A stretch of DNA of 10,907 bases from a virus. The stretch lies in the IMG/VR virus record IMGVR_UViG_3300024353_000077. One strand, given 5' to 3'. Position numbers and translations under genes: made by a program. A model generated the notes under the pieces. That model was given only the letters and a program-made list of their open reading frames with translations. It had not been told where the DNA came from and ran no database searches. Positions 1-6,723 of this stretch are shown one piece after another; the first letter of the stretch is position 1, and each line of letters opens with the position of its first letter.

Positions 1-948
1 GGCGTGGGCGTCTCAATCTGTGATGATATGGGTAGCTGGGGTCCATGCTACTTTTTGACGACTGAACCAGAAAAATGCGATAGTGTAGATAACGACTGTG
101 ACGGTCTCATTGACGGTTATGCTGAGCAGTGTGGTGATGCATCGACGGCTGGTGTCGGTGAGTGTCGCATGGGTTCAAAGATGTGTGACTTTGGCACATG
201 GACGCAGTGTGCGGGCTCTGTTGTTCCGATTGCTGAGGTGTGCAACCACAGGGATGATGATTGTGATGGTCTAATCGATGAAGAGCTCAATCCACATGAG
301 CGCGTCGATATATGTTTCTTCATCGACGGCTCAGGGTCGATGTGCTCCACGATGGCAGCATTGAGGGCAGGCATCTCTGCATACGCCACAGACTTCATCG
401 GCTCTGAGCATCGCTTTTGTTTGGGCGTCTTTCCTGGTGTTGAACCATCAGGCTCTGCATCAGGCATACCCGTTCTAATGCTCACTGGCTCACAGACAAG
501 CGCTCTCGTCGATATCACTGAATTCCAACGAGCATTAGCATCGCTTGATTGTAGCTACGGTGGTCTTGAGCCGAGCTATGATGTTGGGTGGTTGGCAGCG
601 AATCCAGCAGACCCGCTCCACATAGGTTGGCGTTCACCCATGGGTAGCAACACGGGTGCGTACCCATACATCATAATCATCACTGATGAGCCTGCGCAGA
701 CATGGGAGCAGACGACGATGCAATCACGTGAGACAATCGTCGCCCAAGAGATGGGTGATTGTCGTGTCGGTTCATGCGCTCAGGGTGATGAGTATGAGAC
801 GTATGTCATCACACCAAGCTCATTTTGGATGATGTGGAATGACATCACGTTCAACGAACAGTCGCGGCTAATCGACCTCTACCCAGCAGACCCAGTCAGG
901 TATGTCGATGTCCTTCGAAGCGTGTTTTCAAACGTTTGTATCCAATGA
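1..948 (+). CDS. C-terminal part of a Cys-rich-repeat / von Willebrand factor A (vWA) domain protein; the 5' end is outside the window
   Basis: The frame is open from the window edge to TGA at 946-948. There are two Cys/Asp repeats, EKCDSVDNDCDGLIDG and EVCNHRDDDCDGLIDEE, of the Asp/Cys-rich putative Ca/metal-binding repeat type. They are followed by a vWA metal-ion-dependent adhesion site (MIDAS): DxSxS in DICFFIDGSGSM, then LTGSQT and IIIITDE. The ORF track lists it as 4..948 with a GTG, but the frame continues to base 1. Confidence 0.75.
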   Translation, partial: GVGVSICDDMGSWGPCYFLTTEPEKCDSVDNDCDGLIDGYAEQCGDASTAGVGECRMGSKMCDFGTWTQCAGSVVPIAEVCNHRDDDCDGLIDEELNPHERVDICFFIDGSGSMCSTMAALRAGISAYATDFIGSEHRFCLGVFPGVEPSGSASGIPVLMLTGSQTSALVDITEFQRALASLDCSYGGLEPSYDVGWLAANPADPLHIGWRSPMGSNTGAYPYIIIITDEPAQTWEQTTMQSRETIVAQEMGDCRVGSCAQGDEYETYVITPSSFWMMWNDITFNEQSRLIDLYPADPVRYVDVLRSVFSNVCIQ

Positions 949-1060
949 TTGAGTCTGTCGATGCTTAAACGTTATTTCGTTGTGTAAACGCTTGTTAACG
1001 TTGTTTAGTATCAATGAATAAACCCAATGCAGGGTTTTAAAGAAAGCTTAGAGGTGTCCA

Positions 1061-2227
1061 GTGTCTGAAGCAACCAGTACGTTCACGATGCGTGGCCTTG
1101 TGGAGGCCCTCCGCTACATCGACCCAAAACAGACCGCGCTCATCCGGGGTCGCCACGGTATCGGAAAGTCCGCCATCGCCTACCAGATGGCAAAAGAATG
1201 GGGTCTTGACCGTGTCATCGAACGTCGCATCTCACAGTTGAGCGAGGGAGACATGATTGGTCTTCCTGACCGTGATGCCATGAAGTCGTATGATGGTGGA
1301 GACCTCCAGAAGGTCACGAAGTTCCTACCCACCGATTGGTTCCTTGAGGCTGAGTTTAGGCCATGTCTCGTGTTCCTCGATGAAATCAACCGCGGTACTC
1401 CAGAGACGATGCAAGCATGTTTCCAGTTCATTGAGAAGGGTGAACTCAATGGTCGAAAGATTCATCCTGAGAGTCGAATCATCGCCGCCGTCAACTTCTC
1501 TAAGGAATACCAGGTCACTCCAATGGACCCTGCATTCCTTGATAGATTTTGGGTCGCAGACCTCGACCCAGACAAGACCGATTGGGTGACCTGGGCGCGT
1601 AAGTCGAAGACCGATGGTGGTGGTGGCATCTCTGATGCGACCATCGATTTCATCCAGCAATGCAACGAGGACCACTTTGAGATTCGACCCGATAAGCTCG
1701 CTAACATGGGGCCATGTGAAATCACCCCATCGCGCCGATCGTGGGAGCGTCTTGACCGGCATTTCAATAGGACCGTCAATGGTGCTACGCTTCTCGAAAA
1801 GATTGGTGATGGTGTCGCTTACGACGTTGCTCGTGGGTTCGTCGGCCCTGATGCTGCCAGAGCCTACGTGAGGTTCCAGGTCGACCACGACCAGAATGTC
1901 TCTCCTGAGGATGTGTTGAATAACATCTCCAAGGTGCAGAGCAAGGTTAAGAGGCTCAAGCCTGATGCAGCCATCGCGCTCGTTGATAAGCTTGGACACC
2001 ATCTCGTGTCTAAGAACATCATTCTCACTGAACCCCAGGCGAAGAACATCGGAACGTTCATTCGCTTGATTCCGTCTGAGCTTGTTGTCGTGCTTTGGAG
2101 CAAGATTGCTCATACTGCTGTCGAGAATGTGAAGGTCGTGCATAAGCATGTTGGTAGCTACATAATCGAGGTCTTGAGCAATGGAAAGGCCCAACCCTCG
2201 GTGCCTGACACCAAGAAAAAGAAGTGA
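1061..2227 (+). CDS. MoxR-class AAA+ ATPase (AAA_5/AAA_3-like) with a C-terminal extension of about 200 aa of unknown function
   Basis: Walker A is GRHGIGKS. Walker B and the MoxR signature are VFLDEINRGTPETMQACFQFIE, and sensor-1 is IIAAVNFS. The AFLDRF motif matches MoxR ALLDRF. The start is GTG, preceded by AGAGGTG as an SD-like motif 4 nt upstream. The protein ends in a KKKK tail. Confidence 0.85.
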   Translation: MSEATSTFTMRGLVEALRYIDPKQTALIRGRHGIGKSAIAYQMAKEWGLDRVIERRISQLSEGDMIGLPDRDAMKSYDGGDLQKVTKFLPTDWFLEAEFRPCLVFLDEINRGTPETMQACFQFIEKGELNGRKIHPESRIIAAVNFSKEYQVTPMDPAFLDRFWVADLDPDKTDWVTWARKSKTDGGGGISDATIDFIQQCNEDHFEIRPDKLANMGPCEITPSRRSWERLDRHFNRTVNGATLLEKIGDGVAYDVARGFVGPDAARAYVRFQVDHDQNVSPEDVLNNISKVQSKVKRLKPDAAIALVDKLGHHLVSKNIILTEPQAKNIGTFIRLIPSELVVVLWSKIAHTAVENVKVVHKHVGSYIIEVLSNGKAQPSVPDTKKKK

Positions 2228-2230
2228 TGT

Positions 2231-2545
2231 ATGCTTGACGAGGGTTTGATTCAACATCTGTTTGACACTAGCATCTCTGATGAGTTGTATGTAACCGGGC
2301 TTAGGCCCATGATAGATGTTCTTCGTACACAAGAGCTATCAGATGATGATGTCATCTGCATCAGAGATGCCATGAATGTTCAGACTGCACAGCGTGTATG
2401 GAACATATACAGTGTAGTTTTGAGTGCCCATGATGATGGGCGTGAAGAAAGCATCGCACTAGAAAATCTGAAAAGGGTTCATAGGTGTTGTGGAGCGATA
2501 GTCTTGCGTGCGCTTCAAGGGTTTGAAGCCCCTAAAAAGGCATGA
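2231..2545 (+). CDS. hypothetical protein (104 aa)
   Basis: The ATG lies 3 nt after the MoxR stop, which suggests translational coupling. The protein is of normal complexity and I recognise no motifs. It sits between the ATPase and the vWA genes. Confidence 0.4.
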   Translation: MLDEGLIQHLFDTSISDELYVTGLRPMIDVLRTQELSDDDVICIRDAMNVQTAQRVWNIYSVVLSAHDDGREESIALENLKRVHRCCGAIVLRALQGFEAPKKA

Positions 2546-2550
2546 AAGCA

Positions 2551-2593
2551 TGCTGCATTGTCATATGGCATTCTGTCGTATGACAATGCAGTA
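2551..2593. repeat. Perfect 13-bp inverted repeat (hairpin) immediately downstream of the 2231-2545 ORF and upstream of the vWA/metallopeptidase gene start
   Basis: CTGCATTGTCATA at 2553-2565 is the reverse complement of TATGACAATGCAG at 2579-2591. The loop is 13 nt, and outward pairs extend to about 2550/2594. No T-tract follows. Confidence 0.5.
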
Positions 2594-2618
2594 TCCACGA
2601 CAAAAGGATGTGAATGAT

Positions 2619-4259
2619 ATGTCGAAAGATGATGAGAAGAAGCTTGAGGTTGAAGAGGCAGAGAAGACGTGGGAGCAGCTCGTCGAAGAGCAGAAGAACG
2701 TCATGGAGAAGCCTGACGTTCTTCCAAATGAGAAGGCATACAACACAAGCCAGCTTCCACCTGAGCTCATCAAGGATTGGTGTCTTGATATTGAGAAGTT
2801 CAAGGAACTGTGGGCAAGCTCACAGGACTTTGATTTGCAACGTGCATGTATCATTCCGATGTCGTTTGATGAGCCATTTCTCGGTTCTCTTTCGAGACGC
2901 ATCCTGAAGATTAAGACGGCGGCTATTCCAACCGTCGGCGTACGCATCAATGGTATGGGCCTTGAGATGCTCTGGAATCCAATCTTCTTCAAGCACAAGT
3001 TGCATGCCATCTCACCGAAGCACTGCTACGGCGTGTATAAGCATGAGCTATACCACATCGTCTGTGAGCACATCACCAACAGGCGTCAGACGCCACACAT
3101 CCTGTGGAACGTTGCCACAGACTGTGCAATCAACTCTCTGATTCCTCGTGATGAGCTCCCGGCGTTCGGTTGTCATCCGGGAGAGCTGTATGTTCCTCCG
3201 AATGCTCCTCCTGAATGGAAGCCGGGTGTGCTGTCGTTGTTGATTAAGTCGTTGCCGAAGGGTAAGTCGTCTGAGTGGTACATGAACACGTTCCTCGATG
3301 ATAAGGGCGTGCAGGAAGCGATGCAACGTGCCGCTGAGAAGGCTGAAAAGAGAAAGCAAAAGAGGCAGCAGGGAGGACAAAAGGGCAAGGGTATGTCTGA
3401 CCCGAATAGCGACCCAAGCGAAGGCCAACCGGGCTCTGGTGAGGGAGGTGACCCTGACCAGAACGCACAGGACCCGGGCGAGCCCAATGGAATCGATCGC
3501 GACCTCGAGAATGCGCTAAATGAAGAGCTGTTCGGCGAGGGTTCAGGAGCATCCTTCGACGACCACGATGCGTGGGACCAGATGTCGGATTCACAGCGTG
3601 ATATGATGAGAGACGCAATCAGGGACGTCTTCAGGGACTGTGTCAAGGAGACTGAGAGCAAATCGAAGGGATGGGGCTCTGTGCCCTCATCGATGGTGGC
3701 GGCAATCAAGAAGCTAATCTCCAAGGAGGTCGATTGGAGAGCGTTGCTGAACCAGTTCATCGGTCGCACGAGGACATCGCAGACGACGTCGAGCATCAAG
3801 CGTGTCAATCGTCGTGTGCCGTGGGATTTTCCGGGCCGTAAGAGGGCGTATAGCGCAAGACCGGGCATCCTGTTCGACCAGTCTGGGTCGATGGATGATG
3901 AATGGGTATCTCTGTTCTTTGCAGAGCTCGATGCGCTCGGAAATCTCTCTGAGTATGAGATAATCCCGTTCGACTACGATGTTGATGAGAAGAACATCCA
4001 GAACATCAAGCGAGGTCAGAAACCGAACACAATCAGGACGAAGTGCGGAGGAACGAACTTCGAGGCAGCCGTGCAGTACGGCAATAAGCATGCCGATAGG
4101 CTTGACGCACTAATTATGCTAACGGATGGAGGGTGCTCTGCACCGAGCAAGAGTGCACTTCCACTTGCATACGTTCTTGCACCTGGGTGTGAACTCATGT
4201 TTGACCCGGGCCCGAACACGACGGTAATCAAGATGACCGACACGAGGAAGCGTCGCTGA
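2619..4259 (+). CDS. DUF2201-like protein: N-terminal putative HExxH metallopeptidase domain plus C-terminal vWA domain (the MoxR partner protein)
   Basis: The HExxH motif is in YKHELYHIVCEHI. A Gly/Asp/Pro/Gln-rich acidic low-complexity linker follows (QKGKGMSDPNSDPSEGQPGSGEGGDPDQNAQDPGEPNG). The vWA MIDAS is ILFDQSGSMDDEW, then GGTNF and MLTDGG. The start is uncertain: the maximal ORF begins at GTG 2508, and in-frame ATGs occur at 2550, 2586 and 2619. I chose 2619 because it lies downstream of the hairpin and has AAGGA 10 nt upstream. Confidence 0.8.
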   Translation: MSKDDEKKLEVEEAEKTWEQLVEEQKNVMEKPDVLPNEKAYNTSQLPPELIKDWCLDIEKFKELWASSQDFDLQRACIIPMSFDEPFLGSLSRRILKIKTAAIPTVGVRINGMGLEMLWNPIFFKHKLHAISPKHCYGVYKHELYHIVCEHITNRRQTPHILWNVATDCAINSLIPRDELPAFGCHPGELYVPPNAPPEWKPGVLSLLIKSLPKGKSSEWYMNTFLDDKGVQEAMQRAAEKAEKRKQKRQQGGQKGKGMSDPNSDPSEGQPGSGEGGDPDQNAQDPGEPNGIDRDLENALNEELFGEGSGASFDDHDAWDQMSDSQRDMMRDAIRDVFRDCVKETESKSKGWGSVPSSMVAAIKKLISKEVDWRALLNQFIGRTRTSQTTSSIKRVNRRVPWDFPGRKRAYSARPGILFDQSGSMDDEWVSLFFAELDALGNLSEYEIIPFDYDVDEKNIQNIKRGQKPNTIRTKCGGTNFEAAVQYGNKHADRLDALIMLTDGGCSAPSKSALPLAYVLAPGCELMFDPGPNTTVIKMTDTRKRR

Positions 4260-4296
4260 CTTTTACGACTGCAACGTCTTGCTTATAGAATTGAGC

Positions 4297-4476
4297 ATGT
4301 ATGTAAAGAAGCAGAGAACATCACAGTGCGCTAGATGTGGCATCATCTTTCAAAGGAGGATTAAGCCACGTGCGCACTGTGATGCGTGCAGTCCAGTGGT
4401 TCGTAAAGAGAAGGCCCTAGCAAGGCGTCTTGCAAAGGGTACAAACGTTGTGATTGGAAGGGCTGTGATAGCATGA
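4297..4476 (+). CDS. small CxxC zinc-ribbon protein; possibly the frameshifted N-terminal part of the following HNH endonuclease
   Basis: The motifs QCARCG and HCDACS lie 14 aa apart. The stop overlaps the next start as ATGA at 4473-4476. The same CxxC spacing continues in the N-terminus of the next ORF. The maximal ORF starts at TTG 4279, and the first ATG is at 4297. Confidence 0.3.
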   Translation: MYVKKQRTSQCARCGIIFQRRIKPRAHCDACSPVVRKEKALARRLAKGTNVVIGRAVIA

Positions 4477-5069
4477 AACTGCTTCCAATCGACCAGAAGT
4501 TCTGCTCAAAGCGTTGTGTAAATTACGCTGTCATATGGAAGACGCAGCCGACAAAGAGCGTCGTGTGCAATGCATGTGGAACGACATACACGCACATGAA
4601 ACCCATCAGCCACACGAAAAAGGCATGCTCAAGGCAGTGTGCGAATGAGCTCAAGCGTCGGGGTCGCCTGGGAAAAAGCTCATCAGATGAGACACGTGCG
4701 AAGCTTCGTGAGTTAAGACTTGGCACCAAGCTATCATATGAGCATCGAAGAGCAATCGGTGATGGTTGTTCAAGAGAAAAGAACGGAAGGTGGATTGACG
4801 GGCGCTCTTTAATCCCTGATGAGGTTGCATACTTCAATTTTTCGAGGGCACGTAAACGTGATGTCAGGATTCGAGACGGCGGTTGCTGTCGCGTTTGCTC
4901 AGATAAGAAGCAGCTAGCGATACATCACATCGACGGTGATAAAAAGAATGATTCAGACGAAAATTTCATCACTCTCTGTTTTAGCTGTCATTCACGTGTG
5001 CATGGAACCAACCCTCCCATAAAAGGAGACATTGGACTGTTTTACGAATTAAAGGAGAAGCTCAAATGA
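4473..5069 (+). CDS. HNH (His-Me finger) endonuclease with N-terminal CxxC zinc ribbons and a NUMOD3-like DNA-binding motif; homing-endonuclease-like
   Basis: The HNH core is CCRVCSDKKQLAIHHIDGDKKNDSDENFITLCFSCHSRVH. The NUMOD3-like stretch is SSDETRAKLRELRLGTKLSYEHRRAIGDG. The N-terminal motifs are FCSKRC, VCNACG and ACSRQC. GGAAGGG lies upstream of the ATG. Confidence 0.8.
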   Translation: MKLLPIDQKFCSKRCVNYAVIWKTQPTKSVVCNACGTTYTHMKPISHTKKACSRQCANELKRRGRLGKSSSDETRAKLRELRLGTKLSYEHRRAIGDGCSREKNGRWIDGRSLIPDEVAYFNFSRARKRDVRIRDGGCCRVCSDKKQLAIHHIDGDKKNDSDENFITLCFSCHSRVHGTNPPIKGDIGLFYELKEKLK

Positions 5070-5269
5070 GAAAACCCAAACGTTGGGAACTTACACGTGG
5101 CATCGGCCCATTTAAGCAGTTTTATACAAGCGTGTGCTCTGCTCATCGTCATCATGATGATGCATGTGAGCTATGCAATATCGGTTCGTGGTCGAACCTA
5201 TGGTCATGGACCATCTCATGGTATCTATCAGAGTTGCGTTCATCATGTAAGAGATTCATGCGTCAATGA
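5066..5269 (+). CDS. hypothetical small Cys/His-containing protein (67 aa)
   Basis: The start overlaps the HNH stop as ATGA. A strong SD (AAAGGAGAAG) lies 8 nt upstream of the ATG. It is preferred over the overlapping alternative-frame ORF 5097..5282. Confidence 0.4.
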   Translation: MRKPKRWELTRGIGPFKQFYTSVCSAHRHHDDACELCNIGSWSNLWSWTISWYLSELRSSCKRFMRQ

Positions 5270-5938: not shown

Positions 5939-6026
5939 GATTGGGAAGGCTGTGGTGATGTGGTTCTAATTGTTTGGACCACGCTTTTCTAGCCTTTACC
6001 ACCGTTTGGGTGGAAGGAAAGAAGAT

Positions 6027-6278
6027 ATGAGTGACCAGAATAGGAATGCTAGGATTCGTGAGTCGATGACGTCGGGCTCAACCCTTGAGGTTGAGACAGC
6101 GTTTCGTGACGTTGGAACGCTTGTTGCGTCAGCTGATGTCCGTGAGAGGTCAGATGTCGGAACGGGCCGTTCATTGACTGGGCTGTCTGTGAAGACGTCG
6201 GGCGGGCGGAACATCCGCTTCTCTGGCTCAGAGGCTCGCACGCTGTTGCGTGTGCTGCAGCAGGCTGCTTACGGCTGA
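6027..6278 (+). CDS. hypothetical protein (83 aa from ATG 6027; the maximal ORF runs from 5970)
   Basis: A good SD (GGAAGGAAAG) lies 8 nt upstream of ATG 6027. The product is not recognisable. Confidence 0.45.
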   Translation: MSDQNRNARIRESMTSGSTLEVETAFRDVGTLVASADVRERSDVGTGRSLTGLSVKTSGGRNIRFSGSEARTLLRVLQQAAYG

Positions 6279-6288
6279 GTCGTTGTGA

Positions 6289-6330
6289 TTGTTGGTTGGA
6301 TGGTGTGATATGATGCCATCCAACCAACAT
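6289..6330. repeat. Perfect 13-14 bp inverted repeat (hairpin) that encloses the candidate start codons of the glycosylase gene
   Basis: GTTGGTTGGATGG at 6291-6303 is the reverse complement of CCATCCAACCAAC at 6316-6328. The 12-nt loop TGTGATATGATG contains two in-frame ATGs. Confidence 0.5.
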
Positions 6331-6723
6331 ATGCAAACATTTCTTCCATTACCATCGTTCACAGCATCAGCACAGGCTCTTGATTACAGAAGACTTGGCA
6401 AGCAGAGGGTTGAGGCGATGCAAATACTCAACACACTGACGGGAAAGAGCACGGGATGGAAAACGCATCCTGCTGTTAAGATGTGGGTCGGACATGAGAA
6501 TGCATTGGCTGCTTACATGGATGCATGCATCGATGAGTGGGTCTCTAGGGGATATCGAAACACGATGCGTGTCGTTCGACCGACTGGCATCATCATGCCA
6601 CCGTGGTTCGGTGACGATGCATTTCACGCATCACATCGCTCAAACCTACTCAGAAAGTCTCCTGACTTTTACTCTAGGTTCGGATGGATTGAGGGACCCG
6701 ATCTGCCGTATGTGTGGCCTTGA
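6310..6723 (+). CDS. pyrimidine-dimer DNA glycosylase, T4 endonuclease V / bacterial Pdg family
   Basis: RRLGKQRVEAMQIL, GWKTHPAVKMW and LAAYMDACIDEWVSRGYRNT resemble the LLGQHRECCAL, GWGKKHATV and YHKLVMDEMTRRGY blocks of bacterial/phage Pdg, recalled from memory. The start is uncertain among TTG 6289, ATG 6310 and ATG 6331. Confidence 0.55.
   Translation: MMPSNQHMQTFLPLPSFTASAQALDYRRLGKQRVEAMQILNTLTGKSTGWKTHPAVKMWVGHENALAAYMDACIDEWVSRGYRNTMRVVRPTGIIMPPWFGDDAFHASHRSNLLRKSPDFYSRFGWIEGPDLPYVWP

Follow-up and report, generated by a model that had tools for sequence, protein, structure and literature searches.

A diverged copy of the phage ATPase and zincin-vWA gene pair in IMG/VR record IMGVR_UViG_3300024353_000077

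The stretch of viral DNA analyzed here (IMG/VR record IMGVR_UViG_3300024353_000077, 10,907 nucleotides, in the following called the window) contains a gene for an AAA+ ATPase and, shortly downstream, a gene for a partner protein in which a zincin-like metallopeptidase is fused to a vWA domain. By sequence comparison, this pair is a diverged version of a phage module already known, namely gp24/gp25 of phage N4, which corresponds to g028/g029 of phage AR9, and we therefore regard the finding as a diverged member of that module and not as a new kind of system. A preliminary description of this DNA, made from the letters and the open reading frames (ORFs) alone, had named a conserved phage pair of a MoxR ATPase and a DUF2201 protein, and both the profile matches and the adjacency of the two genes in other phages bear this out. 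The ORFs are present as described there, and all sizeable genes of the window lie on the + strand. The window is identical to a part of an 83-kb metagenome contig (ENA ERZ27249619 k141_271959, locus L004), and it is also matched by a 4.9-kb Logan contig. Upstream of the pair, L004 contains genes for a 5'-3' exonuclease, GroEL, a NUDIX protein, HSP20 and a sigma-70-like factor, and downstream of the partner gene it encodes a major vault protein (MVP) homolog, a gene content that fits an uncultured large phage as the source.

The ATPase and the partner protein

The ATPase (Table 1) matches the Pfam model AAA_5 (PF07728) with E=1.5e-6 (28.7 bits, cut-off 22) and, over residues 8-361, phrog_1297, labelled 'ATPase', with E=1.2e-48. 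Homolog searches gave 285 sequences at E<=1e-3, of which 40 with 36-65% identity were aligned, and invariance in the ATPase refers to these 40 throughout. Both strings quoted from the gene in the preliminary description, AFLDRF and DEINRGTPETMQ, are found in it. In addition to the Walker residues, the alignment is invariant at N145, which by its position in the motif is the predicted sensor-1, at R162 of the LLDRF motif, which the MoxR-family consensus suggests to be the arginine finger, and at S224, R226 and S227 of PSRRSWER (residues 223-230), a candidate sensor-2 region. A search of the PDB with the single ATPase sequence produced chance matches only, and a real match needed the profile of the ATPase family, which found the AAA domains of midasin with 6e-24, CobS with 1.6e-4, CbbQ with 2e-3 and NorQ with approximately 0.1.

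It had also been proposed that the ATPase carries a C-terminal extension of about 200 residues. The stretch does exist, but it is no peculiar add-on, since it can be aligned in nearly all of the 40 homologs, with residues 236-370 occupied in 96-98% of them. From this near-full occupancy and the conserved PSRRSWER motif we conclude that it is the normal C-terminal half of the family. This half evolves faster than the core, the mean identity to the query being 32-34% compared to 61%.

The partner protein matches DUF2201_N (PF13203) with E=1.6e-15 and phrog_1314 with E=3.9e-41, and its score against DUF2201 'VWA-like' (PF09967, cut-off 26.4 bits) is 24.6 bits for the whole protein and 28.4 bits for the domain alone. 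Altogether 133 homologs were found, and both Pfam models are present in most of the 120 that were listed; the statements on invariance below come from an alignment of 40 of them with a mean column identity of 30%. The gene has alternative starts at 2550, chosen by the gene caller, and at 2508. The N-termini of the homologs align at the ATG at 2619 and not at the two longer starts, which favours 2619, the start given in the preliminary description, although residue numbers in the partner are here counted from the ATG at 2550. An N-terminal leader of approximately 70 residues is found only in the protein's own subclade (occupancy 0.41). The label of phrog_1314, 'HNH endonuclease', is also carried by the RefSeq copies in AR9, PBS1 and Alteromonas phage AD45-P1 (NC_031039, NC_043027 and NC_021532), and since these proteins have no HNH domain the label is evidently an error that RefSeq records have taken over.

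The layout of the partner is a zincin-like domain, a flexible acidic linker with a helical region, and a vWA domain with a metal ion-dependent adhesion site (MIDAS). The HExxH motif reads HELYH (nt 3042-3056) and sits in a predicted helix formed by residues 156-171. Residues H165, E166, H169 and H174, which make up an extended HExxHxxxxH, are invariant, and so are R178 and D191. In the AF2 model of the entire protein the mean predicted local distance difference test score (pLDDT) is 78.7 and the linker is disordered, and when the N-terminal half was modelled alone the pLDDT was 86.3 and the predicted TM score 0.82. It is this N-terminal domain that structure prediction, suggested earlier as a check on HELYH, models as a zincin: 12 of its 13 best structural matches are zincin metallopeptidases. 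The scores, which are moderate but consistent, are 6.1 for 3e11, 5.8 for projannalysin, 5.6 for proabylysin, 5.4 for BepA, 5.3 for ECE-1, 5.2 for BlaR1, 5.1 for selecase and 4.7 for both Wss1 and Spartan. A search of the PDB with the DUF2201 profile gave chance matches only.

Gly makes up 24% of the linker and Asp and Pro 15% each, and 9 of the residues are acidic and 2 basic. For residues 291-307, the core of the linker, the pLDDT is below 50, and the length of the linker varies among the homologs (occupancy 0.42). Composition and low pLDDT thus agree on the flexible, acidic and Gly/Pro-rich connection that had been described between HExxH and vWA. Beyond the DDHxxW motif that follows the linker, W375 and G376 are also invariant. 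The C-terminal domain models as a vWA fold, and instead of a vWA domain without MIDAS, the outcome that had been named as damaging to the assignment, we find the full site: DQSGS lies at nt 3876-3890, and D443, S445, G446, S447, G500, G501, T502 and D526 do not vary in the alignment.

Apart from this, relatives of the partner in the genome collection that carry the motif ATD[LC]AINS (L013-L029) are all located on contigs of metagenome-assembled genomes and none comes from an isolate genome. Several of these contigs have been assigned to Bdellovibrionota or Halobacteriovorax bins. The contigs probably come from phages and were binned together with bacterial DNA, and the binning may give a hint of the host.

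Table 1 Features of the ATPase and partner genes and of the genes next to them.
Feature	Position	Strand	Basis
3' part (last 315 codons) of a 647-aa predicted lipoprotein, MopE repeats and C-terminal integrin-beta-like vWA	1..948	+	cut by left window edge
AAA+ ATPase, AAA_5 / MoxR class, 388 aa, N4 gp24-like, AR9 g028-like	1061..2227	+	Pfam, PHROG
Walker A GRHGIGKS, residues 30-37	1148..1171	+	G33, G35, K36 invariant in 40 homologs
Walker B VFLDE, residues 104-108	1370..1384	+	D107, E108 invariant in 40 homologs
AFLDRF motif with putative arginine finger R162	1532..1549	+	A158, R162, F163 invariant in 40 homologs
ORF, 104 aa, function unassigned, between ATPase and partner genes	2231..2545	+	accessory, specific to L004 contig
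Zincin-like metallopeptidase fused to vWA (DUF2201_N + DUF2201), 546 aa, N4 gp25-like, AR9 g029-like	2619..4259	+	Pfam, PHROG
Predicted zincin-fold catalytic core: three strands and active-site helix with HExxH, then H174 and D191	2835..3194	+	domain model pLDDT 86.3
Acidic Gly/Pro-rich low-complexity linker, 41 residues	3375..3497	+	composition
DDHxxW motif just after the linker, role unassigned	3558..3575	+	D337, H339, W342 invariant; D338 at least 90% conserved
Predicted vWA domain with complete MIDAS: D443-x-S445-G-S447, G500-G501-T502, D526	3840..4232	+	residues invariant

Relatives of the pair in phages and in other systems

The N4 genes gp24 and gp25 are the prototypes of the pair (PMC2784036), count among the 14 genes of the N4-like core and give middle transcripts (PMC4193335), and a pair of a MoxR gene and a metallopeptidase-vWA gene has been described in jumbo phages (Iyer et al. 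2021, Viruses 13:63, PMC7824862). In the AR9 annotation g028 is an 'AAA family ATPase' and g029 a 'zincin-like protease fused to vWA domain', located behind an early promoter, and in Shigella phage B2 gp1 is annotated as 'MoxR-like ATPase' and gp2 as 'putative metallopeptidase'. We found no paper reporting experiments on N4 gp24/gp25, AR9 g028/g029 or any other member.

In approximately two thirds of the loci with enough flanking sequence the ATPase gene is located at most 4 kb upstream of the partner gene. The two are adjacent in AR9, in phage B2, in the sister contigs described below and in other large phage-like contigs, and beyond the N4-like phages the pair is also present in Bacillus, Vibrio and cyanobacterial phages. 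In a Foldseek search against viral models, the two-domain architecture of the partner was found in many phages, among them PBS1, Pseudomonas phage Zuri, a Klebsiella phage, cyanophage S-TIM5 and a Ruegeria phage. Among isolated phages the best matches to the window proteins are just 25-29% identical. Much closer are the sister contigs (L006 and L007/L008), whose ATPases are 56-57% and whose partners 53-57% identical to those of the window, and where the gene content of the block is the same and the order much the same.

When the window is compared with N4 gp24/gp25 and their Schitoviridae orthologs, such as B2 gp1/gp2, the same two families are adjacent in the same order, and in tblastn the N4-like ATPases show 25-28% identity to the window ATPase over 83-88% of its length. 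The window proteins are longer, with 546 residues in the partner against approximately 366-393, and the partner differs by its leader of about 70 residues and by a longer acidic linker; furthermore an ORF of 104 codons is inserted between the genes. AR9 g028/g029 and PBS1 213/214 are likewise adjacent pairs of the same families in jumbo phages, with 25-29% identity to the window, and the PBS1 protein A0A223LDP1 is the second-best structural match of the partner in BFVD (E=2.3e-21). In AR9, which infects Bacillus, an early promoter is annotated. The 'chaperone-cochaperone' pair of group 2.2 jumbo phages (Iyer, Anantharaman, Krishnan, Burroughs and Aravind 2021) has an identical architecture, a MoxR gene beside a vWA protein with an N-terminal metallopeptidase. 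The clade of the window has an MVP homolog, GroEL and a sigma factor, and the assembly role given in the group 2.2 paper is a proposal.

Outside phages, an AAA_5-type ATPase is also found in NorQ/NorD and CbbQ/CbbO, for which structures have been solved, and in midasin (Rea1/MDN1), where an acidic low-complexity stretch precedes the MIDAS domain as in the window partner. In contrast to the window partner, NorD, CbbO and midasin have no zincin peptidase domain. These systems activate or remodel enzymes or pre-ribosomes, whereas the window pair is predicted to cleave its substrate, and midasin is a single giant polypeptide where the window system consists of two proteins.

Proposed mechanism and competing explanations

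By analogy with NorQ/NorD, CbbQ/CbbO, RavA/ViaA and midasin with its own MIDAS domain, we think it fairly probable that the pair is a module in which an AAA+ ring drives a MIDAS adaptor holding a protein substrate for remodelling and for cleavage by the zincin domain. The ATPase would form a hexameric ring on which the vWA domain of the partner docks, the MIDAS metal would hold an acidic residue of the substrate, ATP hydrolysis would remodel or pull the substrate, and the tethered zincin domain would then cleave it. The whole would amount to an ATP-dependent metalloprotease built from two polypeptides, acting in the cytoplasm of the infected cell early to mid infection. Since the pair is core in N4-like phages of unrelated hosts, its target is most likely a phage-intrinsic or universally conserved protein. 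The proposal builds on the membership in the two families, the ATPase motifs, the zincin fold with an invariant HExxHxxxxH...D, the vWA domain with MIDAS, and the frequent adjacency in distant phages.

Several points weigh against this explanation. Both H174 and D191 are invariant and either may be the third zinc ligand, so that the model leaves two candidates for that position. Vibrio phage phiKT1024 and two further loci (L009/L010) have a DUF2201 gene with no ATPase gene within 4-6 kb, which shows that coupling of the two genes in cis is not obligatory. The assignment of the ATPase comes from sequence comparison, and the strict MoxR model AAA_3 (PF07726) scores only E=0.16 (12.3 bits, cut-off 27), so that the ATPase is MoxR in the broad sense only; from its profile matches it is best described as an AAA_5 protein of midasin/CbbQ-like type, MoxR-class broadly and not MoxR proper. 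The broad usage of the name is reportedly that of Snider and Houry and of Aravind's group. Finally, ATPase activity, zinc binding, proteolysis and physical interaction of the two proteins are predictions for every member of the family.

A more daring version of the same mechanism, to which we give a low probability, likens the pair to an 'FtsH in trans', or to a mini-midasin that is split and carries a blade: the MIDAS would grip an acidic residue of a specific substrate, the AAA+ ring would pull, the linker-tethered zincin would cut, and the DDHxxW motif would serve as an internal plug or pseudo-substrate, so that the protease stays latent as long as the ATPase has not engaged. If true, protease activation would follow a logic that has not yet been described for MoxR-vWA systems, and two of the 14 N4-like core genes would be given a function.

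Among the alternatives, the one that survives best is a virion-assembly chaperone and maturation protease, where the pair folds, assembles and trims structural proteins. It is a specific choice of substrate within the mechanism proposed above, and we consider it possible though doubtful. Iyer et al. proposed that the pair takes part in assembling virions and in processing proteins by cleavage, drawing an analogy to Acidianus two-tailed virus, where a MoxR-vWA pair is needed for growth of the tails (PMC7824862). The core-gene status across hosts fits a phage-intrinsic substrate, mid-phase virion-protein genes of roseophage RPP1 are located near the gp24/gp25 homologs, and GroEL and HSP20 are encoded in the same gene block of L004. 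Nevertheless the N4 transcripts are middle and not late, AR9 g028 lies behind an early promoter, and the virion proteins listed for RPP1/RLP1 do not include the gp24/gp25 homologs. Furthermore the block in L004 holds sigma-70, NUDIX, 5'-3' exonuclease and chaperone genes and no recognisable structural genes within 10 kb. This early or middle timing, together with the non-structural neighbourhood, disfavours a classic late maturation protease.

The same timing in AR9 and N4 would agree with a protease for host takeover or anti-defence, one that would seize a host protein at an early stage of infection and destroy it, and so would the position of the pair beside the gene for a phage sigma factor and further genes of the takeover type. 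We hold this to be unlikely, as genes for takeover and anti-defence are usually accessory and host-specific, whereas the pair belongs to the core of N4-like phages from both Alpha- and Gammaproteobacteria and extends to the Bacillus, Vibrio and cyanobacterial phages, with invariant catalytic and MIDAS residues.

The gene directly upstream of the ATPase was the origin of a very different suggestion in the preliminary description, a ternary MoxR-vWA system for NTP-dependent conflict with the Cys-rich vWA protein as third component. The complete gene (L004 7945-9888) encodes 7 MopE-type Cys-rich repeats (E=4.6e-33) and 51 cysteines, and the N-terminus of the protein, MALNQSKKSRAIAYVSVILLISAC, has a basic n-region, a hydrophobic core and the lipobox I-S-A-C (L-V-G-C in the L006 ortholog), so that it is probably an exported lipoprotein. 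The C-terminal 220 residues have no Pfam match of their own, even at E<=10, and a word-indexed search with this domain found one relative compared to 1,395 in an exhaustive profile search. A profile of 26 homologs matched the I-domain of integrin alpha-L with E=1.9e-8, and 23 of the 26 match PF00092 VWA, from which it follows that the claim of a second vWA protein was correct, although by transitive homology only. In the 26-member alignment D-x-S-x-S, a Glu and D-E are invariant, and the Glu aligns in or next to the MIDAS Thr segment of integrin alpha-L; in the beta subunits of integrins this MIDAS position is taken by Glu. Giant proteins 3,000-5,000 residues long also end in this type of vWA domain; they have 20-46 separately matched stretches, mostly to the MopE-motif end of the profile. 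Our guess is that the lipoprotein has a role at the host surface, for instance in adhesion or superinfection exclusion.

That the lipoprotein belongs to a ternary system is, in our judgement, very improbable. What speaks for it is that the ATPase gene is flanked by two genes for vWA proteins, which is the case in the L004 contig alone, and that the order of third component, MoxR and vWA has a superficial likeness to the VMAP systems (PMC7159879). What defines the ternary systems is a third protein of VMAP, iSTAND or similar type in a strict gene order, together with effector domains that vary on the vWA component (Kaur, Burroughs, Iyer and Aravind 2020, eLife 9:e52696, PMC7159879). The upstream protein has MopE repeats and a vWA domain only and no VMAP, iSTAND, beta-propeller, FtsH or other third-component domain, and its lipoprotein signal, 51 Cys and 7 MopE repeats place it probably outside the cytoplasm, apart from the cytoplasmic ATPase. 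The adjacency is not conserved either: in L006 and L007 the ortholog lies 3-5 kb upstream of the ATPase, behind HSP20, sigma-70 and small ORFs, and in 20 more distant loci carrying the partner gene the lipoprotein was not found, which largely refutes the ternary reading. The MVP homolog was likewise not found in these 20 loci. The 40 aligned partner homologs show no variability of effector domains, all being zincin-linker-vWA. A MoxR-class ATPase followed by a vWA protein is thus shared with the VMAP/iSTAND systems, but the window pair is without the third component and without C-terminal effector domains on its vWA protein, and it is found in a phage core gene context and not in a mobile, diversifying island of multicellular bacteria. 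PADLOC matches are at chance level only (E 0.019 and 0.064), none of them significant; an identity as a defence system was considered and rejected.

Least credible of all is a pair of metal chelatase subunits of CobS/CobT or BchI/BchD type, carried as an auxiliary metabolic gene: chelatases do pair an AAA+ protein with a vWA protein and the ATPase has a weak likeness to CobS (phrog_249 E=4e-6; PDB CobS E=1.6e-4), but the comparison with CobS/CobT that had been called for came out on the side of the MoxR/DUF2201-type profiles, which are better by tens of orders of magnitude (phrog_1297 1e-48; midasin 6e-24), no CobS_N, CbbQ_C or CobT Pfam match was obtained even at E<=10, and the invariant HExxH zincin domain of the partner is not found in chelatase subunits.

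Neighbouring genes and significance

Scanning positions 900-4600 for promoters and terminators gave counts no higher than in shuffled sequence, and operon boundaries can therefore not be called. Scans of the window proteins with NCBIfam and PADLOC gave nothing meaningful. The ORF between the ATPase and partner genes has no Pfam, PHROG, NCBIfam or PADLOC match and no tblastn match in the sister contigs (L006-L008), and it falls in the 500-base block with the lowest GC content of the window, 0.454. The blocks with the ATPase gene and most of the partner gene have 0.51-0.56, and the downstream stretch with an HNH gene has 0.45-0.48. From its absence in the sister contigs and its low GC content the ORF looks like an insertion. 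The same gap contains four different small ORFs in L007 and none in L006. Both this ORF and the upstream lipoprotein were considered as components of the module and rejected; they are mere neighbours.

Directly 3' of the partner gene, positions 4279-5269 (+) contain a Cys-rich ORF of 65 aa, an HNH endonuclease of 198 aa (PF01844 E=5e-5; phrog_1271 1e-17) and an ORF of 67 aa, and as none of the three was found in the sister contigs, the stretch is probably a homing-endonuclease insertion. A small ORF of unassigned function at 5970-6278 (+) has a counterpart downstream of the partner gene in each of the sister contigs, with 63-65% identity over residues 21-102. It is followed at 6289-6723 (+) by a pyrimidine dimer DNA glycosylase like T4 denV (Pyr_excise E=5.8e-24), which among the relatives is unique to the L004 contig.

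The product of the gene at 6817-9480 (+), 887 aa long, is homologous to the major vault protein of eukaryotes (MVP_shoulder E=1.8e-18, Vault_3 E=3.2e-8). It is conserved in the sister contigs with 57-61% identity and shares 38-40% identity with proteins encoded by the genomes of uncultured huge phages (LR756500/1/3; 462-735 kb). For phages, MVP homologs have been described in a single earlier report on two gut phages (bioRxiv 10.1101/2023.11.10.566534), and of all genes in the window this one may be the most interesting. The last gene, at 9579-10907 (+), is the start of a 514-aa gene (L004 18519-20063) that is cut by the right window edge and has no Pfam match.

The ternary idea, from which the apparent unusualness of the locus came, fails on comparison with related genomes, and by itself the window establishes no new principle. 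Its significance lies with the family: the pair is among the few N4-like core gene sets, and is a recurrent jumbo-phage module, still without an assigned function. A diverged member from an uncultured clade adds sequence depth and clarifies which constraints act on the family, as HExxHxxxxH...D, DDHxxW and the full MIDAS are invariant, and these residues are precise targets for mutagenesis in the tractable phages N4 and AR9.

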